Positions 2-19,990 of a DNA stretch of 64,000 nt are shown here, piece by piece; position 1 is the stretch's first letter, and the number at the start of each line of letters is the position of its first letter. Origin of the DNA: Enterobacteria phage T6; the sequence record MH550421. The stretch is one strand, 5' to 3'. The position numbers and the translations under genes are program-made. The notes beneath the pieces are model-generated. The model had not been told where the DNA came from. It did no database searches and saw only the letters and a program-made list of their open reading frames with translations.

Positions 2-388
2 CAAAATGCCTACGGGTTCTTAGCTAATGGTTTACCGCTTTATTGCGATACCAACAGCCCATTAGATTATGTAATCGTTGGCGTAGTAGAAAATATCGGT
101 GAAAAAGAAATTGTTGGATCAATTTTCTATGCTCCGTATACAGAAGGTCTTGACTTAGATGACCCTGAACATGTAGGTGCATTTAAAGTTGTAGTTGATC
201 CAGAAAGTTTGCAGCCATCTATCGGTTTATTAGTTAGATATGCTTTATCTGCAAATCCTTACACTGTAGCAAAAGATGAAAAAGAAGCAAGAATAATTGA
301 TGGTGGAGACATGGATAAAATGGCGGGTCGTTCAGATTTGTCTGTTTTATTAGGTGTTAAGCTACCAAAAATTATCATTGATGAATAA
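2..388 (+). CDS. 24: Capsid vertex protein gp24, 3' portion (5' end upstream of window)
   Basis: Frame is open from window start to TAA at 386-388 (ends ...LPKIIIDE); lies immediately upstream of convergent rnlB as in T4; call rests on synteny. Confidence 0.45.
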   Translation, partial: QNAYGFLANGLPLYCDTNSPLDYVIVGVVENIGEKEIVGSIFYAPYTEGLDLDDPEHVGAFKVVVDPESLQPSIGLLVRYALSANPYTVAKDEKEARIIDGGDMDKMAGRSDLSVLLGVKLPKIIIDE

Positions 389-394
389 AACAAA

Positions 395-415
395 GGGACC
401 TTTCGGTCCCTTTTT
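395..415. terminator. Bidirectional rho-independent terminator between convergent genes 24 and rnlB
   Basis: GGGACC-TTTC-GGTCCC hairpin followed by TTTTT; T-rich on the other strand as well. Confidence 0.5.
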
Positions 416-417
416 AT

Positions 418-1422
418 TTAACTTACCAATTCAATCCAAGCCGGACGAAGTACATCTTGTACCATTTTAACTAATTCCTTCTTAATCAAAGACGGATTAT
501 CCGCTTGAGTTAGAGTAATACCTTCACGAGAAGTTTCTTCCAAAATATCTTGAACAGTTAGTCCCATCACCTTTCCAAAATCCTTTGGACCAATTTCGCC
601 AATTTTAGAAATAACGTTATTTACTCGGTTCAGTGTAACGTAACAAGCTAAAATTCCAACCAATTTGTTATCAGCTTCTGACAGTTCAACTTTAGCTTTA
701 ATAGGCTTATCAGACTTTTTCTTTTCACTAAATTTAGAGTTCTTGCATTTGATGGCTACACGATTGCGATTAGGCAGCCAAGAAGGATAACAAGGTTTCA
801 ATACATATCCTTCAGCGGTAAATACTTCGCCTTTTGCTTCAGCATTCCAAACGCATTTATTTGCATCAACTAATCCAGCATGGTCTACCGTAAAATTATA
901 ATCCTGTACGACAGAATCTAAATCATTTGGCAATTTAATCAGCTCTTCAAATTTACCGCGACCTAAAAGTGGAGCCATTTTAAATTTAAACGTATTACAG
1001 AATGATTCCATCATATAATCATCGACATAAGTTACATCACCACTTTCTGTAGTAACAATAATGTCAAATACATAAAAATCTTTATCACCATAATCGACAT
1101 TCTTCTGAATGCCAGGTCCAGCGAATTCGCCAAAGACTTGATAAGATACAACCGCTGAAGTTTCCATAATATCTTGTACTGCTTTAATGGAATCAGCGTA
1201 ATTCTTCAAAATAATTTCATACCCAAAGAAATCTTCAGCAGGAAGAATAGGACCAGTGCGTTTAGCACAAGTTACTTTATCACGCTCAATAATCAATGAG
1301 AAATTTGTGCCATGAATCTTTTCACGAGCTACCCATTCGCCGCCAGTCAATCCTAAACTGTAAAGTTTTTCAATAAATTTAGAGTTGTAATGATTTTCAA
1401 GACTGCTATACTTTTTAAACAT
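418..1422 (-). CDS. rnlB: RNA ligase 2 (Rnl2)
   Basis: 334-aa ORF with KIHGTN nucleotidyltransferase motif I; size and sequence match my recollection of T4 Rnl2. Confidence 0.9.
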
Positions 1423-1431
1423 AATTAATCC

Positions 1432-1710
1432 TCAAAATGTAATTTCTAACCAATCACCATCACGCTGATCACTATTAACTTTAAAGCTGAATCCTTCTTT
1501 TCTCAGCCAATCACCAATTTCTTCAGTAATCAATTTATCACGAGCAGTACAATAATAACTAAAATATGTTTTACCTTGTTCAGCTGCTTTATTAGCAAGT
1601 TCCGAAAAATCTTTAATAAAACACTCTAGCTTAAACTGTTTGCTTTTAAGTGCTTTTTCGCGTAATTGATTAGCAAAAGATTCATTTTCATAAAGATCAT
1701 ACTGTTCCAT
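1432..1710 (-). CDS. Hypothetical protein, 92 aa (position of T4 24.2)
   Basis: ORF directly downstream of rnlB on the same strand; no recognised motif. Confidence 0.5.
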   Translation of the reverse strand: MEQYDLYENESFANQLREKALKSKQFKLECFIKDFSELANKAAEQGKTYFSYYCTARDKLITEEIGDWLRKEGFSFKVNSDQRDGDWLEITF

Positions 1711-1912
1711 TTTTCACCTTTTTATTAATATGTCTTTTTCTATAGACAACTTTTTCTCGAGTTTCAAATTTATTCTTAGCAGTCATAGCTCGAGCCCATA
1801 ATACAGCCACTTCTTTTGCCTGTAAGTTTAATTCACGAGCAATTTCAATGAATGACTTTCCAGACTCATGAAGAGTAAACACCACAACCTCAGTTCTCAT
1901 AATCAATCTCAT
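1697..1912 (-). CDS. Small putative helix-turn-helix protein, 71 aa (position of T4 24.3)
   Basis: ORF with HTH-like segment GKSFIEIARELNLQAKEV; overlaps upstream ORF by 14 nt. Confidence 0.45.
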   Translation of the reverse strand: MRLIMRTEVVVFTLHESGKSFIEIARELNLQAKEVAVLWARAMTAKNKFETREKVVYRKRHINKKVKNGTV

Positions 1913-1981
1913 GTTATCGAGTTGGTGCCATTATATACATCATTTTCTGATTGTGTTTTACGTGCTTTCAAAATGAAGAAA

Positions 1982-1995
1982 GGGGCCGAAGCCCC
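1982..1995 (-). terminator. Terminator hairpin downstream of hoc
   Basis: GGGGC-CGAA-GCCCC hairpin; on the gene strand followed by T-rich TTTCTTCATTTT. Confidence 0.4.
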
Positions 1996-2001
1996 TTATG
2001 A

Positions 2002-3133
2002 TTATGGATAGGTATAGATGATACCAGTTTCTAAAGCAGTTTTATGAATGATGTATCCATTACGTGATTCTTGAACATCAACTTCTGGATAGTCTTTCAT
2101 CATCTTCTGAAGAGTGTAACGATGCAGGTAGTATTTACTATCTGGATCTTCAGTTTTCCAATCTTTACCTTCTTCAGTCATTTTTTGAATTTCATCCATA
2201 ACCCACCAACCGCACCAGATGTAAGCTGAAGTACGATGTGGAAGAGGATGAACATAAGGTAATTCACCTTCTGGTTCTGGAGCAACTTTATCAGTTACCT
2301 GAACTTGACCTTCTGCTGTAATAGTTTTGCTATCATAATCAGTAGCAGTAACGACGGCAGTCACTTCAATAGTTTGACTTCCAATAGATGAGGTATCAAC
2401 GGTATATACATTAGTTGACCCTTCTACAGGAGAAGAATCTTTCTTCCATGAATACGCAATTTGCGCTTCTTCTGGAGCATCAGTAACATTAGCAGTAAAT
2501 GTAGCCGAAGCATCTTGTTGAACGTTAATAGAAGGAGGAGTCAATGTAACCTGTGGATTCATTGTCTTCTTATTAACCGTTAATGATACTTCATTAGAAG
2601 TAACTTCCTTTTCATTGTAATTTTCTGCAGTTACTTGGGCTACGCATTTAATTCTTTTTAACTCCACTTGTAGTTGGAGTGTAATTGAATGTAGCGGAAG
2701 TTGCTTCGTCCACAGGAGAACCGTCAACGTACCACTGATATGTGGCGTTTGCGCCCGATGGCTGCGAAGCTAAAGTAGCGGTAAATTCAACAGCTGTTCC
2801 GATTACTCCAGCATCAGGGCTACCAGGAGTTACGGCTAAAGTAGTTGTTTGTGTCTTATTTTGAACTGTGATAGTTGTACTAATTTCAGCTGTTTCGGGA
2901 CTACTATCGGCAACTTGATTTGTTGCAACTACTTTAATAGTCTTTTGACCGGCAGGTCCTTTTAGTACATAACTAAAAGTTGCTGACGTTTCTTCCTGTG
3001 GAACATCGTCTACAGTCCAAGCATAGGTAATAGTTCCACCTCCAGTTTCACCACTGGGTGTAGCAGTAAACTGCTTAGTTTCATCAATAACCCCTGTTGG
3101 TGTTTTAGGAGTTATATCAACTGTAAAAGCCAT
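2002..3133 (-). pseudogene. hoc: Outer capsid protein Hoc, interrupted by a +1 frameshift (or sequencing error)
   Basis: Two overlapping ORFs (2648..3133 and 2002..2727) both encode Ig-like Hoc sequence; frame changes at an A5 run (plus-strand T run 2655-2659); 1132 nt total = 376 codons + stop + 1 extra nt. Confidence 0.8.
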
Positions 3134-3142
3134 AAGTTATCC

Positions 3143-3823
3143 TTATTTTAATGTTACGAAAGAAGAATTACGTGTTTCACGAATTAGAACTGATCCGTCG
3201 CGATTAATGTAATAAATTAAGCTAAATAAAGTTTGGTGTGCCGACGCATGTTCAAAACTAGTTGGTTGAGATTTCCAATCCGGAGTTTCAGCGATCCATT
3301 GATAAATCCACCAAGGAACAGTGCAGAATCCTGGATTTTTTCCAATCAGCTGAAGATTCGGACTAAAGTTTTCCGGAAGAGTAAATACAGACGGCTTTTC
3401 AGATTCAATAATCTCAGCTACAGCCTGTTCGAATTTTTCTTCAACAAAAGGAGTATCTTCAATCAAAACTGAGGTATTTTCAGGAATTTTATCAGTTTCT
3501 ACTACTTCAATTTTAATGTCAGATTTAATCGGAGAATCAATCAGAAGTGCTGCTTCTGGATTGACTTCTTCATCGTCATATTTTAATCCCTCTGCGGCAT
3601 CAGCAGCATCAATTAAGTCTTTAATAGATAACCCATCAGTCTCTGGCATAGGTTCACTAGCGAGCTTCTGGAGGGCTTCTTCAATATCATTAACGATATT
3701 ATCAAAAGATTTATTCTTTTTGACCTTTATACCAAACTGTTCAGCATATTCAGCTAATTTAGCTTTAGCTTCTTTGTTATCATCAAGAGCCTTCAGCTCT
3801 GCAATATAATCTTTATCTATCAT
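3143..3823 (-). CDS. inh: Inhibitor of prohead protease (Inh)
   Basis: 226-aa ORF immediately upstream of hoc; size and N-terminus MIDKDYIAELK consistent with T4 Inh. Confidence 0.75.
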   Translation of the reverse strand: MIDKDYIAELKALDDNKEAKAKLAEYAEQFGIKVKKNKSFDNIVNDIEEALQKLASEPMPETDGLSIKDLIDAADAAEGLKYDDEEVNPEAALLIDSPIKSDIKIEVVETDKIPENTSVLIEDTPFVEEKFEQAVAEIIESEKPSVFTLPENFSPNLQLIGKNPGFCTVPWWIYQWIAETPDWKSQPTSFEHASAHQTLFSLIYYINRDGSVLIRETRNSSFVTLK

Positions 3824-3836
3824 AATATTTCCTCAG

Positions 3837-3844
3837 TATAAATA
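3837..3844 (+). promoter_or_regulatory. Late promoter (TATAAATA) upstream of segE/uvsW
   Basis: Exact TATAAATA 29 nt upstream of the segE ATG; sits in a near-palindromic TATAAATATAGATATATTTATTA that also gives a late-promoter-like element for inh on the other strand. Confidence 0.45.
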
Positions 3845-3872
3845 TAGATATATTTATTACTCGGAAAATAGT

Positions 3873-4490
3873 ATGTACCACTTTGTATATGAAACAACAA
3901 ATCTAATAAATGGTAAAAAGTATATAGGAAAGCACTCTACTGATGACTTGAATGATGGTTACCTTGGTTCCGGTAAGGCAATTCAGCAGGCTATAAAGAA
4001 ATATGGTGAAAACAATTTCTCTAGAACAATACTAAAAGAGTTTAAAACTTCCGAAGAAGCGTACATGTATGAAGAAGAAATTATAACTCCTGAACTAATA
4101 AAAAGCAAAAATTATTATAATATGAAACCTGGCGGAATTGGTGGAATTGTTATGACTACAGAGGTTATAGCAAAGATGAAAGAATCTTCCGCTAAAAGAT
4201 TTGAAAACTCACCGGGCACGGTATTAGGTAAAACTTGTTATACTAATGGAACTAAAAATATTTTTATTAAACCTGGAGAACTTGTTCCAGAAGGATTTGT
4301 AAAAGGGATGGTTCATCCTAATAGAAAGTCCAGAAAAGGATGTAAAGTCAAACCGACTACCACAGGAACTTTTTGGGTCAATAATGGCGCAATAAATAAA
4401 TTAATACAACCAGACGGTATTATTCCCGACGGATTTATTAAAGGTCGTCTCATGAAAAGAGATTCTAAAGGCAAATTTAGTAAGGCATAA
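3873..4490 (+). CDS. segE: GIY-YIG homing endonuclease SegE
   Basis: 205-aa ORF with GIY-YIG motifs (KYIGKHS ... DGYLGSG); located between inh and uvsW as in T4. Confidence 0.8.
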   Translation: MYHFVYETTNLINGKKYIGKHSTDDLNDGYLGSGKAIQQAIKKYGENNFSRTILKEFKTSEEAYMYEEEIITPELIKSKNYYNMKPGGIGGIVMTTEVIAKMKESSAKRFENSPGTVLGKTCYTNGTKNIFIKPGELVPEGFVKGMVHPNRKSRKGCKVKPTTTGTFWVNNGAINKLIQPDGIIPDGFIKGRLMKRDSKGKFSKA

Positions 4491-4492
4491 TT

Positions 4493-6000
4493 ATGGATAT
4501 TAAAGTACATTTTCACGACTTCAGTCATGTACGCATCGATTGTGAAGAGAGCACGTTTCACGAATTAAGAGATTTCTTTTCGTTTGAGGCCGATGGATAT
4601 AGATTTAATCCTCGCTTCAGATGTGGCAACTGGGATGGACGAATCCGTCTTTTAGATTATAATCGACTTCTTCCATTCGGCTTAGTCGGGCAAATTAAAA
4701 AGTTCTGTGATAACTTTGGCTATAAAGCCTGGATTGACCCACAAATTAACGAAAAAGAAGAATTATCAAGAAAAGATTTTGATGAATGGCTTTCTAAATT
4801 AGAAATCTATTCAGGAAATAAAAGAATTGAACCACACTGGTATCAAAAAGATGCAGTGTTCGAAGGATTAGTTAATCGTCGTAGAATTCTTAATCTTCCA
4901 ACATCTGCAGGTAAATCTTTAATTCAAGCTTTGCTTGCGCGGTATTATTTGGAAAATTATGAAGGTAAAATTCTTATCATTGTTCCAACAACTGCTCTGA
5001 CAACTCAGATGGCTGATGACTTTGTTGACTATCGTTTATTCAGTCATGCAATGATAAAGAAAATCGGTGGCGGAGCATCAAAAGATGATAAATATAAAAA
5101 TGATGCACCAGTCGTTGTTGGTACATGGCAAACTGTAGTTAAACAACCGAAAGAATGGTTCTCACAGTTTGGAATGATGATGAATGATGAATGCCATCTT
5201 GCTACAGGAAAAAGTATTTCATCTATCATATCAGGATTAAATAATTGCATGTTTAAATTTGGTTTGTCTGGTTCATTACGTGATGGAAAAGCCAATATCA
5301 TGCAGTATGTTGGAATGTTTGGTGAAATATTTAAGCCAGTAACGACTTCTAAGTTAATGGAAGATGGACAAGTAACTGAGCTAAAAATTAATAGTATTTT
5401 TCTTCGCTATCCCGATGAGTTCACTACTAAATTAAAGGGAAAAACTTACCAAGAAGAAATAAAAATTATTACTGGGCTTAGTAAAAGAAATAAATGGATC
5501 GCTAAATTAGCTATTAAGCTTGCGCAAAAAGATGAAAACGCTTTTGTCATGTTTAACATGTATCGCATGGTAAAGCTATTTTCGATTTAATTAAAAATGA
5601 ATACGATAAAGTTTATTACGTATCAGGGGAAGTTGATACCGAAACCCGCAATATAATGAAAACCTTAGCTGAAAATGGTAAAGGAATAATTATAGTAGCT
5701 AGTTATGGTGTATTTTCTACTGGTATTTCAGTTAAAAATCTGCATCACGTTGTTTTAGCGCACGGTGTTAAATCAAAAATCATTGTATTACAAACAATCG
5801 GTCGTGTATTACGTAAGCATGGTTCTAAAACAATCGCAACAGTCTGGGACCTCATAGATGACGCGGGCGTAGTTTCTAAATCAAAAACATCTTCTAAAAA
5901 ATACTCGCATTTAAACTATCTTTTAAAACATGGAATTGATCGTATTCAGCGTTATGCTGATGAAAAGTTTAATTATGTGATGAAAGAGGTTAAACTTTGA
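4493..6000 (+). CDS. uvsW: UvsW SF2 helicase, reading frame broken by an apparent 1-nt deletion near 5552-5556
   Basis: ORF 4493..5590 carries Walker A (LPTSAGKS) and DECH; ORF 5656..6000 in another frame carries motif VI (QTIGRVLRK); restoring one A in TTTAACATG gives a continuous 502-codon gene. Confidence 0.85.
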
Positions 6001-15219: not shown

Positions 15220-15245
15220 GGGGACCGAAAGGTCCCCATATTTTT
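15220..15245. terminator. Bidirectional terminator between gene 54 and the convergent minus-strand ORF
   Basis: GGGGACC-GAAA-GGTCCCC hairpin followed by ATATTTTTATTT. Confidence 0.55.
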
Positions 15246-15534
15246 ATTTACGGAATGAAATGAAAGCAGAAACTGAAGCAACTAAACTGTCTTCAATATA
15301 AACTTCAATTTTTACCGGAGCTTCTGACTCAAATTTACCTGTTACTACACCCTGAAAAATACTTTCAGTTTGTTCTGGCTTTGAAAAATTTTCAGAAGGA
15401 AAAATTCCGAACTTTTTATCTGTTCCAAAAATTTTAATAAATTCATCGTAAACTGCTTCATTAAAAGCATTATCAGCAGGAATAACGCCTTCAACTACAA
15501 GTTCTTGACCTAAAAAGCGCAAAGAAGATTTCAT
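15244..15534 (-). CDS. Hypothetical protein, 96 aa, between gene 54 and the alt genes
   Basis: ORF with GAGGAA Shine-Dalgarno and its own early promoter. Confidence 0.5.
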   Translation of the reverse strand: MKSSLRFLGQELVVEGVIPADNAFNEAVYDEFIKIFGTDKKFGIFPSENFSKPEQTESIFQGVVTGKFESEAPVKIEVYIEDSLVASVSAFISFRK

Positions 15535-15565: not shown

Positions 15566-15595
15566 ATTATAACACAACATAAGGAACTTGTAAAC
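15566..15595 (-). promoter_or_regulatory. Early promoter (GTTTAC-N18-TATAAT)
   Basis: -35 GTTTAC at 15590-15595 and -10 TATAAT at 15566-15571 on the minus strand; leader is nearly identical to the alc promoter leader. Confidence 0.5.
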
Positions 15596-17652
15596 TACAT
15601 TTTGAACTTTTTAGACATTCCGTTGATGTTAACCAAAGAAGCTAAGATTTGAGAAACTTCGTTTTCCTCTTCTTTTGATTCTTCTACAAGGAATTGATTA
15701 AATCCAGTCATTGGACGAACTTCACCAGTTTCCATTAGATGGTCTCCATCATATACTGATTCTTCTAATTGTTCAGAAGGAGGAACGATTGTACCTTCGA
15801 TTAGATACTTGTTATAAGCAGTTTCTTTCATAAAGTACGTACTTACTTTATTAATCTTCAGTAAAATTCCACGCGGTAGAATAACTTCAGCTTCTGATGG
15901 AAATCCTGTTAAATGACCTGGAACGATAACTTTGATTCGCTCAGCTCCTTTAATTACCATACCCACGCTAGTTTCAGCATCTTCATTAGCATATGTAGAA
16001 TGACTACCCATATGCATCAAATCTTCTGCATCAACAGAACCTTCTCCTTCGCCAGAAAATACTTCACCGGAATCATCTAGAGCCATATAGTTTTTACCAT
16101 GCTCACCGAAGATATTCGGTTTAAGCGATGTAGATACGAAGTTCTTGAAATAGAACATTTTGTTTTCAATGTTATGACGCAAAGTTTTAAAGGTAACTTC
16201 TTGTCCACGATAAAGCGTAGTTCCTGGAGGAAGAACTGAACCTTTAGCGAATGCAGAATCCAACGTCTCGATGTGCTTAATGGCACGTTCCATATATTCT
16301 TCACGGGTAGAATCTGGTTTACCCAAAAGGAACGAGTTCATTTCAACATATGAATCTGCACAATAATCTTCAATTACATCAGATTCAGCTTGAGTTAATC
16401 CTTTTGGAGTTACTTCAGTACTTGCATATTCATACGCCTGAGCAGCAGATTCATTAATCAATTTATAAATGCCATTCATTACAAATTGAATAATAGCTGT
16501 CTTTTCATCTGGCGTGGCTTTAGAACCTTTAACTAAATCATTAATAATTTTCTTAATAACATCAAAGCTATTAGAAATATTAATGTCAGCAAGATCGCTT
16601 AAAATTTTATCAGTTTTATAATCAAAGAATTCTTTATTCTTTAAATATTCTTGAGAACCTTGATATGTTATATCGCTCTGCAGCTTGATAGATGGATCAC
16701 GTAAACGCGCATGGGCCAATGCGATATGATTTCGGAAGTTTTCTAGTTCATAATCGCTAGATTTAAAACGAGAAGCACTCCTCATACCACCGATAGCTCC
16801 TTTGCCGAAGTTTGAACCAATCTGGATAACGCCAGAGTTCATCGGACCTTCTGCTTTATATACCGGAACTTTAGATTCAAACTCTTGATATTTCTTGGCA
16901 GCGAAGCTATCACCCTGAAGTGAAGCATCAACAGTAGAATATTGAGCTTGTGCTGCTAATCGACGACTAATTTTAGTTTTCTGAATAACAGCTTGGTCCG
17001 TGCGCTTATCATTTTCTAAAGCAATAGAAGCAGCAACAGCGACAGCTTTAGGAACAGCATTACCTGTTTTAACGTCTACATAAACATCACCAACCTTTGA
17101 TTCAACTTTTGTGAATAACTCAGTTGAAATAGGAGGTACACCTGGAATGTCTTCTAAATTGGCATTTTTACGGTAAACCATAATATATGCGTACTTTTTA
17201 TCATAATCCCAGATTTCCTTTAAAAGAACATATCGACCTGCTCCTTTAATACGTACTAAACGGTCAGCAATAACTTGCATTTGACGAGCAGCGCCATTTG
17301 TTTTACTTTTTAGTACGCGGAATAAGCATGCGTCGATTTTATACTGTTTCATTGTTTGAAGAGCAGTATCAAAAACAGCATTAATGACGCCAATTGGATT
17401 TCCACCCAAGTTTTTAAGCTTGACTAACGATAATTTCTCGTTGACACCTATCATTACGATATGCATCATTTTATCGCCTGGCTTAACGTTTTTATTTGTA
17501 TCACCGCCAGAGGTGTATGTACAAAATCTAAATCCAGGAAGCACACTTTCTTCGCCGGCTTGAATAGCAAAAATTTGTGGTATTTTATGCTTAGGATTTA
17601 AGTTAACAACCGGCGCCGAAGCGCCGTCAAATAATTCTGTAATAAGTTCCAT
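15595..17652 (-). CDS. Alt-family mono-ADP-ribosyltransferase paralog, 685 aa
   Basis: Begins MELITELFD like the adjacent alt; conserved N-terminal ~230 aa and C-terminal ART core (YRGQ, FVSTSL, EAEVILPRG); start is 1 nt after the upstream alt stop. Confidence 0.75.
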   Translation of the reverse strand: MELITELFDGASAPVVNLNPKHKIPQIFAIQAGEESVLPGFRFCTYTSGGDTNKNVKPGDKMMHIVMIGVNEKLSLVKLKNLGGNPIGVINAVFDTALQTMKQYKIDACLFRVLKSKTNGAARQMQVIADRLVRIKGAGRYVLLKEIWDYDKKYAYIMVYRKNANLEDIPGVPPISTELFTKVESKVGDVYVDVKTGNAVPKAVAVAASIALENDKRTDQAVIQKTKISRRLAAQAQYSTVDASLQGDSFAAKKYQEFESKVPVYKAEGPMNSGVIQIGSNFGKGAIGGMRSASRFKSSDYELENFRNHIALAHARLRDPSIKLQSDITYQGSQEYLKNKEFFDYKTDKILSDLADINISNSFDVIKKIINDLVKGSKATPDEKTAIIQFVMNGIYKLINESAAQAYEYASTEVTPKGLTQAESDVIEDYCADSYVEMNSFLLGKPDSTREEYMERAIKHIETLDSAFAKGSVLPPGTTLYRGQEVTFKTLRHNIENKMFYFKNFVSTSLKPNIFGEHGKNYMALDDSGEVFSGEGEGSVDAEDLMHMGSHSTYANEDAETSVGMVIKGAERIKVIVPGHLTGFPSEAEVILPRGILLKINKVSTYFMKETAYNKYLIEGTIVPPSEQLEESVYDGDHLMETGEVRPMTGFNQFLVEESKEEENEVSQILASLVNINGMSKKFKM

Positions 17653-17655
17653 GAT

Positions 17656-19752
17656 TTATCCTTGAACGAACTTGTAAGGCATGTTTGTAATATCTATGCA
17701 AGACGCAATAATTCCAAGAGATGATTCTACTTTCTGTTTAACATTTGATGAAACAAATGATGCAAAGTCAACTCTGTCTTCTATTTCAATATCACCTGTC
17801 ATTGCAACTACTTCACCGGTTTCCATTAAACAGTCTCCGTCATAGATTACCGATTCGGTGAGTTCTTCTGTGGTCATAACTTCAGCTTGAATGAGTTTTG
17901 TATTGTTAGATGTTGTTCCATCATTATTAGAAGCATCAGTTATTTTATTAACTTTGACCATTAATCCGCGCGGTAGAATAACTTCAGCTTCTGTTGCTAT
18001 TCCGAGACTTCCTGGATATACAACATTAACTTTATGAGCTCCATCAATTGCCCATCCTATTTGAACTTTAACGTATTCAGGATTTTCTTTATACGCTCTT
18101 ATTTCGTTTGGATTAATAGTTATTCCTTCTTCATTTTTATCAACTGTTAATTCATTGCGAGCTTCTGGTTCTAAAAGACCAATACCAGCATGTGTAATTC
18201 CAAAACGTCCAAAAATGATAGGAGTTAAAGAAGTAGATACAAAATTTCTGAAATAGAATACTTTATTTTTAACTAGCGCTTCGTATATAGGAGCAGTCAT
18301 ACTTTGAGCACGATAAACTGTAATGCCTTCCGGTATGCGGTCACCATTTTCAAAAGCTGAATCTAAATTATTTATAGCAGATTCAATTTCTTTTTCACTC
18401 ATTACATCATATCGTTCTGGATTGTAACGACCTAAAAGAAGATTATTAATGTCTGTATATCCTGAACCACAATACTCTCTAATACCGCGCTTTTGCGATG
18501 GAGTATATTTAGAACCATCACGGGCAATAGTAATATCAATCATTGGGCCTGCACCAATTCCAGAAAAACTATAAATCATTCGTTTGAGGAATTTAGTTTT
18601 TGCTGCATTCCAGGCATTTTTAGTTATTTCTCCCCAGACTTCATCTGGTTGCCCTTTACGAGTTTTATTATGTTTATCAAGCCAATTATCTTTATATTCT
18701 TCAAAGAATTGATTGACAGCTGCTGCGTATTTCTCTAAACATTTTATTGAAGTAGTTGGTTCATTTTTGATCGCATTAAGAATTACATCTTTAATTTTTT
18801 CGGAAACTTCATTAACCTCACTTTTTGAAAAGAATTTATAGTCATAGTGAAGTTCATTCGCAGTTCCTTCGGCAATAATTTTTGCTGCCTTAGTTTTAGA
18901 AGCTAATGAATTAATTCCAAGCTTCATTTCTTCTGCTTCGGGAATTAAAGGAGCAGTAGCAGGTTTATTGAAATTAGCTGCGGTAGATTCATACTTCTGG
19001 AATAATTCACTTTCAAATCTAGAAGATTCCAATGACTGACTTTGTGCAATTGCTCTACGGGAAATTTTAACTTTAACGATTACAGCTTGGTCAGAACGTT
19101 TATCATTTTCTTGTGCAATAGATGCTGCAATTGCCTCATTTTTAGTTACTTGAGCTCCAGTATCTTTATTGATATAAACATCACCGACCTTCGATTCAAC
19201 CTTAGTAAAGAGCTCGGTACTAATTTCCGGAACTCCTGGAATGTCTTCTAGTGATACATTTTTGCGATGTATAAGAATATATGCATACTTTTTATCATAA
19301 TCCCAGAGTTCCTTAAGAAGGACGTATCTTCCACCTGAACGACTACGGATAAGTCTATCAGCAATAACTTGAATTTGTCGAGCTTGGCCAGCAGTTTTAG
19401 ACTTAAGAATACGAAGCATGCAGGCATCAATTTTATACTGACGCATTGTTTGCATTGCAACAGTAAAAACTGAATTGATATAATTAATTGGGCTTGGTCC
19501 AAGACCTTTTAATTTAGCAATTGAACCTTTAGCAGTTAATGTAAAAGGAACAATATGCATCATTTTATCGCCCATTTTTAAATCGCGATTAGTATCACCT
19601 CCGGATGTATAGGTACATAAACGAAAGCCTGGTTGTTCAATTGCATCATCAACATGAACTGAAAAAATTTGCGGTATTTTCTTCTTTGGATTTAAGTTTG
19701 TAATTGGAAGAGTAGTATCTTCGTCAAATAATTCTGTAATGAGTTCCATCAT
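17656..19752 (-). CDS. alt: ADP-ribosyltransferase Alt (packaged head protein)
   Basis: 698-aa ORF with R/S/ExE-type core (YRAQ, FVSTSL, EAEVILPRG); late promoter and position next to gene 30. Confidence 0.75.
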   Translation of the reverse strand: MMELITELFDEDTTLPITNLNPKKKIPQIFSVHVDDAIEQPGFRLCTYTSGGDTNRDLKMGDKMMHIVPFTLTAKGSIAKLKGLGPSPINYINSVFTVAMQTMRQYKIDACMLRILKSKTAGQARQIQVIADRLIRSRSGGRYVLLKELWDYDKKYAYILIHRKNVSLEDIPGVPEISTELFTKVESKVGDVYINKDTGAQVTKNEAIAASIAQENDKRSDQAVIVKVKISRRAIAQSQSLESSRFESELFQKYESTAANFNKPATAPLIPEAEEMKLGINSLASKTKAAKIIAEGTANELHYDYKFFSKSEVNEVSEKIKDVILNAIKNEPTTSIKCLEKYAAAVNQFFEEYKDNWLDKHNKTRKGQPDEVWGEITKNAWNAAKTKFLKRMIYSFSGIGAGPMIDITIARDGSKYTPSQKRGIREYCGSGYTDINNLLLGRYNPERYDVMSEKEIESAINNLDSAFENGDRIPEGITVYRAQSMTAPIYEALVKNKVFYFRNFVSTSLTPIIFGRFGITHAGIGLLEPEARNELTVDKNEEGITINPNEIRAYKENPEYVKVQIGWAIDGAHKVNVVYPGSLGIATEAEVILPRGLMVKVNKITDASNNDGTTSNNTKLIQAEVMTTEELTESVIYDGDCLMETGEVVAMTGDIEIEDRVDFASFVSSNVKQKVESSLGIIASCIDITNMPYKFVQG

Positions 19753-19772: not shown

Positions 19773-19780
19773 TATTTATA
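19773..19780 (-). promoter_or_regulatory. Late promoter (TATAAATA) for alt
   Basis: Minus-strand TATAAATA about 20 nt upstream of the alt start. Confidence 0.5.
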
Positions 19781-19785
19781 AAATT

Positions 19786-19803
19786 AAAGGCCCGAAGGCC
19801 TTT
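19786..19803 (-). terminator. Hairpin terminator upstream of the alt late promoter
   Basis: AAAGGCC-CGAA-GGCCTTT stem-loop. Confidence 0.4.
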
Positions 19804-19990
19804 AATAATCTAGTGGTAAGAGAGTACGGTATATTTCAAACTTTGGACCTTTTTCATAGGCATCAAATGTTTCTGTAAATTTATTATAAGCATATGCATC
19901 TACAAATTCGAGAACGACTTGTGATACAGAAGTAGAAACATCTCCACCTTCTTTTTGAGCTACGACAACTGTTTCTAAGTAAGCTTTCAT
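19802..19990 (-). CDS. Hypothetical protein, 62 aa
   Basis: ORF overlapping the stop of gene 30; no motif recognised. Confidence 0.4.
   Translation of the reverse strand: MKAYLETVVVAQKEGGDVSTSVSQVVLEFVDAYAYNKFTETFDAYEKGPKFEIYRTLLPLDY

Follow-up and report, generated by a model that had tools for sequence, protein, structure and literature searches.

The alt locus of phage T6

Enterobacteria phage T6 (sequence record MH550421) carries two genes of the Alt family of ADP-ribosyltransferases (ARTs) side by side, here called altA and altB. The window, to which all positions refer, is the whole stretch of 64,000 nucleotides (nt) that was analysed. An earlier note on this DNA had described two adjacent minus-strand genes of 698 and 685 amino acids (aa), and the open reading frames (ORFs) agree: altA (17656-19752) and altB (15595-17652) adjoin on the minus strand and both are intact. 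The earlier note had put a single nucleotide between them, but the spacer from the altA stop codon (TAA) to the altB ATG has 3 nt (atc, 17653-17655). altA is the orthologue of T4 alt and is 100% identical to the stand-alone GenBank entry ‘T6 alt’ (X69894). The locus lies between DNA ligase (gene 30)/alt.1 and alt.-3/gene 54, a position that matches the one in T4, T2, RB32, AR1, SHFML-26 and JS98. Coordinates of genes, domains, motifs and signals are collected in Table 1.

Similarity, enzyme class and catalytic residues

AltA and AltB are 40% identical over their full length (BLASTP, E = 3e-157), which is far beyond chance. Regional identities and catalytic positions were taken from a three-way alignment with T4 Alt that was verified codon by codon. 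In AltA numbering, the two proteins share 68% of residues in the N-terminal region (1-238), 15% in the central region (239-411), 32% in the ART region (412-600) and 33% in the C-terminal tail. Both match the Pfam family PF03496 (ADPrib_exo_Tox) above its cut-off of 23.4 bits, AltA with 129.1 bits (E = 1.7e-37) and AltB with 70.4 bits (E = 1.6e-19), and both match phrog_802 (Alt-like RNA polymerase ADP-ribosyltransferases) over their full length (E = 4e-272 and 3e-255). The catalytic residues R/S/S/E/E occur in both proteins and do not vary among 11 aligned Alt paralogues, which come from Tequatrovirus, Dhakavirus, Biquartavirus and Krischvirus. The reading of the pair as tandem, diverged Alt-family ARTs of the R-S-E (arginine-serine-glutamate) type, with about 230 N-terminal aa and the R, STS and ExE core in common, is upheld by these matches, and neither copy lacks a catalytic residue on proper alignment. 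Divergence of the centre was also seen correctly in the earlier note, but its extent was not: in place of some 250 aa, the near-unalignable part covers about 175 aa, to which a variable insert within the ART domain is added. No NCBIfam model matches AltA or AltB, and a Pfam search of the N-terminal and central fragments returned nothing significant; for the homologues, PF26846 is given as a precomputed match.

Transfer of ADP-ribose from nicotinamide adenine dinucleotide (NAD) to protein arginine has been demonstrated in the literature for T4 Alt only (PMC5512222, PMC11404850). Activity of T4 Alt is abolished by the substitution E577A (PMC11404850), which corresponds to the second Glu of the E-A-E motif here, the numbering of that paper being offset by one from the 682-aa numbering. 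Beyond the Alt proteins, the ART fold and the active site of R, S-T-S and E-x-E are held in common with the R-S-E clade of Vis, C3bot, CDTa, VIP2 and iota Ia; the inactive ART-fold adaptor domain that forms the N-terminus of the binary toxins (VIP2, iota Ia, CDTa) was looked for and not found. The T4 enzymes ModA and ModB belong to the same Alt/VIP2 ART clade and are likewise phage-encoded host-takeover enzymes (PMC5512222). Unlike Alt, they are short, early and not packaged, and have neither the N-terminal and central domains nor the gp21 propeptides.

A search for a solved Alt structure found none, with only weak CDTa and iota Ia matches for AltA and no match for AltB. AltB was considered through an AlphaFold2 model (mean predicted local distance difference test score, pLDDT, 74; from 22 sequences), which predicts an N-terminal domain of alpha/beta type (12-226), a central domain made up of helices only (240-415) and an ART domain (420-625). 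In a Foldseek comparison the modelled ART domain matches Vis, C3, CDTa, VIP2 and iota Ia (E 1.5e-6 to 1e-3), and on this model AltB is a protein of ART fold. The tail is predicted to be disordered from residue 629, exactly where the would-be propeptide starts.

Head packaging and gp21 processing motifs

Each T4 head contains about 40 copies of Alt, which is a component of the prohead core (PMC9958956). Its cleavage sites for the head protease gp21 are ITE-6 and LTE-619, with a loss of 63 C-terminal residues (PMC5694885). Both motifs at which gp21 cuts T4 Alt are retained in AltB, the C-terminal one as L-E-E, and cleavage is predicted. Glu6 and a C-terminal L-x-E-S followed by D-G-D are invariant in the 11 paralogues of four genera, with the L-x-E motif some 55-65 residues from the C-terminus. 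Trimmed at both sites, the proteins are predicted to mature to AltA 7-632 (70.1 kDa) and AltB 7-631 (69.2 kDa).

These motifs bear on whether AltB is an injected effector at all. It could instead act late in the producing cell, or be purely a structural protein of the core. Alt has been described as a core protein besides its enzymatic role (PMC11404850), and the literature search found no proteomic evidence of AltB in virions, both of which would fit such a role. Conservation of the N-terminal domain, of the I-T-E(6) propeptide and of the C-terminal L-x-E-S motif nevertheless speaks against an AltB that stays behind, and catalytic residues conserved under purifying selection speak against a purely structural one; we consider either role improbable. 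Packaging and injection of AltB together with AltA is the reading that we prefer.

Table 1. Features of the alt locus of T6, in positions of the window.
Feature	Position	Strand	Remarks
altA, T4 alt orthologue	17656-19752	(-)	698 aa from first ATG (MMELITELFD...); 697 aa from RefSeq ATG 19749
AltA N-terminal domain, 1-238 (697-aa numbering)	19036-19749	(-)	
AltA central domain, 239-411	18517-19035	(-)	
AltA ART domain, 412-632	17854-18516	(-)	
AltA C-terminal propeptide, 633-697	17659-17853	(-)	
AltA N-terminal gp21 motif I-T-E(6)	19732-19740	(-)	
AltA catalytic Arg480	18310-18312	(-)	YRAQ
AltA S505-T-S507	18229-18237	(-)	FVSTSL
AltA E587-A-E589	17983-17991	(-)	EAEVILPRG
AltA C-terminal gp21 motif L-T-E(632)	17854-17862	(-)	
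altB, second Alt paralogue	15595-17652	(-)	685 aa, begins MELITELFD; RB32 name alt.-2; JS98 counterpart altb
AltB N-terminal domain, 1-237	16942-17652	(-)	
AltB central helical domain, 238-414	16411-16941	(-)	
AltB ART domain, 415-631	15760-16410	(-)	
AltB C-terminal tail, 632-685	15598-15759	(-)	
AltB N-terminal gp21 motif I-T-E(6)	17635-17643	(-)	
AltB catalytic Arg482	16207-16209	(-)	YRGQ
AltB S507-T-S509	16126-16134	(-)	
AltB E587-A-E589	15886-15894	(-)	
AltB C-terminal gp21 motif L-E-E(631)	15760-15768	(-)	
A5 run in altB	17489-17493	(-)	T4 has A4; frameshift splits remnant into alt.-1 and alt.-2
9-bp direct repeat CTAAAAAGT, upstream copy	17305-17313	(-)	
9-bp direct repeat CTAAAAAGT, downstream copy	15606-15614	(-)	
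T4-type late promoter box TATAAATA	19773-19780	(-)	upstream of altA; exact motif
altB Shine-Dalgarno AAGGA	17659-17663	(-)	within last altA codons, 6 nt before altB ATG
GC-rich hairpin AAAGGCC-TTCG-GGCCTTT, then AATTTT	19786-19803	(-)	read from sequence; T-run abuts late promoter
Early-type sigma-70 promoter TTTACA-17-TATAAT	15566-15594	(-)	11/12 matches, with TG; directly after altB stop, serves alt.-3

Distribution and earlier descriptions

The 5.5 kb around the locus are 100% identical to phage T6 (AP018814 / NC_054907) and 97-98% identical to T2, RB32, RB33, RB27 and several hundred other Tequatroviruses; 393 records span 80% or more of the 5.5-kb query, and AltB is found at an identity of at least 95% in about 396 records (tblastn). 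RefSeq labels both T6 genes ‘Alt-like RNA polymerase ADP-ribosyltransferase’, and the second copy in T2 and RB27 bears the same label. In RB32 the second gene is named alt.-2 (‘similar to alt’), in AR1 both genes are called alt, and the same pair is present in T2 and SHFML-26. The second copies in RB32, T2, AR1 and SHFML-26 are the same gene as AltB in the same tandem position, with no difference of substance. Dhakavirus JS98 and IME08 have tandem genes named alta and altb, of which altb is the AltB orthologue in the same tandem position.

The paralogy has also been described in print. Nolan et al. (2006) listed T4 alt.-1/alt.-2, RB49 ORF183c and 44RR ORF187c/188c as paralogous duplications of alt (PMC1524935), and a 2026 paper reported a pair of Alt-like paralogues, 43% identical, for 6phi13 and SHFML-11 and, in the same vein as the earlier note, speculated on an ‘expanded target range’ (PMC13600099). 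The suggestion that the pair is new therefore fell, because T-even references (T6, T2, RB32, RB27, AR1, SHFML-26) already annotate both genes: the tandem arrangement is known, annotated and described, and is the ancestral majority state.

Alt copy number at this site varies among Straboviridae, since Aeromonas phage 31 holds three consecutive Alt-like genes (locus 58-4926) of 319, 639 and 642 aa, of which two are full copies and one is partial. In Krischvirus GEC-3S a single full alt precedes an ORF of 274 aa. In Shigella phage sb4 (PQ666542) both alt genes and gp48 are split into short coding sequences, labelled alt_1 to alt_4, most likely through sequencing or assembly indels and not through biology.

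The remnant of altB in T4

The earlier note had given T4 a single alt gene, of 682 aa. T4 does have one intact 682-aa alt, but beside it lie two small hypothetical genes, alt.-1 with 61 aa and alt.-2 with 67 aa, which its annotation describes as ‘an old duplication of the first part of gene alt’. This T4 segment is the counterpart of the 5' end of altB and aligns base for base with its first 348 nt, apart from scattered substitutions and two lesions. One lesion is the loss of one A from the A5 run. At the other, the T4 sequence jumps from the first to the second CTAAAAAGT, with the 1,699 base pairs (bp) between the copies deleted. The base-for-base match and the CTAAAAAGT-to-CTAAAAAGT jump indicate that T4 represents a derived state, which arose by repeat-mediated deletion of a once full-length altB and not by partial duplication of alt. 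Exactly the same junction is shared by 91 records (T4 strains, RB55, RB59 and HY03 included), and altB is intact in about 400. Having two genes is the ancestral condition and much the more frequent (about 400 against about 90 records). T4 Alt and AltB share their whole architecture at 40-43% identity, and it is the AltB lineage that was lost in T4.

Selection and evolution of the pair

Selection was analysed in five phages (T6, RB32, AR1, T2 and SHFML-26), with the fragmented genes of Shigella phage sb4 left out. The altB ORF is intact in 5/5. Pairwise ratios of nonsynonymous to synonymous divergence (dN/dS) are 0.026-0.057 at a dS of 0.10-0.19, pairwise dN is at most 0.009, and no region (N-terminal, central, ART or tail) departs from the low dN/dS. 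Such values indicate strong purifying selection on the whole AltB protein, and both Alt genes are probably functional. They also bear on the possibility that altB is a pseudogene in decay, going the way of T4 alt.-1/alt.-2. A deleted, frameshifted remnant is indeed present in T4 and 90 further records, but with all 685 codons intact in the five phages, a low dN/dS, a complete catalytic triad and about 400 full-length records, decay in T6 is very hard to credit, and a pseudogene or inactive copy was rejected. A working AltB is the reading carried forward here.

The age of the pair was approached with domain-wise neighbour-joining trees, which are distance trees of 11 sequences without bootstrap support. 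In the central, ART and tail trees, T6 AltB groups with the altb products of JS98 and IME08 (44-59% identity) and AltA with those of alta. This A/B grouping across genera indicates that the altA/altB duplication predates the split between Tequatrovirus and Dhakavirus. The N-terminal domains group by genus: identity between A and B is 68% in T6 and 65% in JS98, against 42-47% across genera. This genus-wise pattern suggests either old homogenisation or co-evolution with a genus-specific head core. Recent gene conversion between altA and altB was considered and rejected, the N-terminal DNA being 65% identical with a longest identical run of 22 nt.

altA itself occurs in two forms. Between the allele of T6, T2 and RB32 and that of T4, AR1 and SHFML-26, a cassette that covers the central and ART parts (nt 742-1860 of altA, window about 17890-19008) has a dS above 1.1 and a dN of 0.45, whereas dS is 0.07-0.14 in the N-terminal flank and 0.08-0.20 in the C-terminal flank; the two alleles occur in otherwise 97-98% identical genomes. 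The same mosaic is seen when the positional orthologues T4 Alt and AltA are compared as proteins. They are 72% identical overall, with 99.6% in the N-terminal 238 aa and 89% in the C-terminal tail, and are alike in having a late promoter, an upstream terminator, R/STS/ExE residues and two gp21 sites, ITE-6 and LTE. They differ in the cassette, with 31% identity in the central domain, 59% in the ART domain and about 46% across the whole segment 17890-19008.

In the ART region, AltA of T6 and AltA of Dhakavirus IME08 (locus 2989-5079) are 95% identical, while the N-terminal domains are 46% identical, and this difference suggests exchange of the cassette between genera; identity to the ART region of JS98 AltA is 61%. 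Three ART cassettes, namely T4-type altA, T6-type altA and altB, circulate in near-identical Tequatrovirus backbones. T6 carries two of the three and T4 one, which differs from either T6 cassette.

Expression signals and neighbouring genes

A late promoter had been noticed for the upstream copy only. This stands insofar as an exact T4-type late promoter box TATAAATA precedes altA and the motif scan of the window found none directly upstream of altB, but it overlooks a further exact TATAAATA inside altA (18369-18376, minus strand), about 720 nt upstream of the altB start. This internal box could be a chance match, because 11 copies of the motif in the window against 9.4 expected give no enrichment, or it could serve altB as an internal late promoter. 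The simplest reading is that altA and altB would form one late transcription unit; co-transcription is assumed because altB has no promoter directly in front of it. Upstream of the unit, the hairpin at 19786-19803 looks like an intrinsic terminator after alt.1. It is not listed by a consensus terminator scan; a conserved terminator upstream of alt has been described (PMC1524935). At the downstream end, the early-type promoter behind altB appears to mark the 3' limit of the alt late unit, and a bidirectional terminator is located after alt.-3.

The two neighbours are small genes on the same strand. alt.-3 (15244-15534, minus strand) encodes a 96-aa DUF5498 protein and has its own early-type promoter. 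In T4, mutants with a C-terminal extension of Alt.-3 escape the CmdTAC defence by blocking degradation of CmdA (PMC11618068). On the other side, alt.1 (19802-19990, minus strand, 62 aa) is labelled ‘siderophore-interacting protein’ in RefSeq T6 and matches Pfam PF24647 ‘Phage blade protein’ (E = 2.4e-29); the RefSeq label seems to stem from faulty annotation transfer.

AltA and AltB as a proposed pair of injected enzymes

We propose, with a probability of roughly 0.75, that the two-gene alt locus of T6 encodes tandem R-S-E mono-ADP-ribosyltransferases that are made late, packaged, trimmed by gp21 and injected, and that differ in their host targets. In this mechanism altA and altB would be transcribed late as one unit from the TATAAATA box at 19773-19780. 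Both proteins would enter the prohead core through their shared N-terminal domain, and gp21 would trim both ends. Injected with the DNA, they would use host NAD+ to ADP-ribosylate host proteins within the first seconds of infection. AltA would take the classical Alt targets, for example RNA polymerase's alpha subunit, and the target set of AltB may include defence proteins. That the two act on different host proteins is most likely, because their central (15% identity) and ART (32%) domains have been kept distinct over a long time.

The chief competitor is a redundant spare, in which AltB is packaged and active on the same targets as AltA and the pair merely increases how much enzyme is injected. 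A common N-terminal domain and identical catalytic motifs would fit such a spare, as would the loss of AltB in T4-type phages without obvious cost. Identity in the central and ART domains is too low for this to be an easy explanation, and the maintenance of both lineages in two genera under strong purifying selection is unexpected for pure redundancy. Moreover, Alt variants are not interchangeable against Mokosh type I: infection is rescued by T4 Alt and not by Bas37 Alt (bioRxiv 10.1101/2025.11.20.689424), a preprint result which supports the view that Alt variants are not functionally equivalent. Redundancy of this kind is unlikely, though less so than the other alternatives considered above.

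Several points weigh against the proposal of two injected enzymes with different targets. Production, packaging, injection and enzymatic activity of AltB are predictions, and virion proteomics, knock-outs and targets of the second paralogue were looked for in the literature and not found. Only sequence divergence suggests that the targets differ. Co-transcription is assumed from the missing altB promoter, and the internal TATAAATA could also serve. Confidence in the AltB model is only moderate, given its pLDDT and the number of sequences behind it. Finally, T4-type phages do well without AltB, and its contribution is therefore dispensable on laboratory hosts.

Implications for T-even phages

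As a discovery the gene pair has little weight, as reference annotations hold both genes and the paralogy has been in print since 2006-2007. The residual interest is modest and lies in the clear modular pattern of effector-cassette exchange at the alt locus. The direction of change is worth remembering: the model phage T4 has lost the second enzyme by a simple repeat-mediated deletion. Classical knowledge of injected ADP-ribosylation comes entirely from T4, a lineage without AltB. Alt is now linked to counter-defence (MazF, Mokosh type I). With these links and with variants that are not interchangeable, AltB is a cheap and well-defined candidate for target profiling in T2 and T6.

More tentatively, and at somewhat less than even odds, T2, T6 and most wild Tequatroviruses may deliver two different ADP-ribosyltransferases at the moment of injection, the second being AltB with host targets that are its own, perhaps a defence or stress protein of the bacterium. 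If this is true, the missing AltB could account for part of the variation in how sensitive T-even phages are to defence systems. With its three cassettes, the transfer between genera and the genus-specific N-terminal domain, the locus would then amount to a modular ‘effector slot’ in the phage head.

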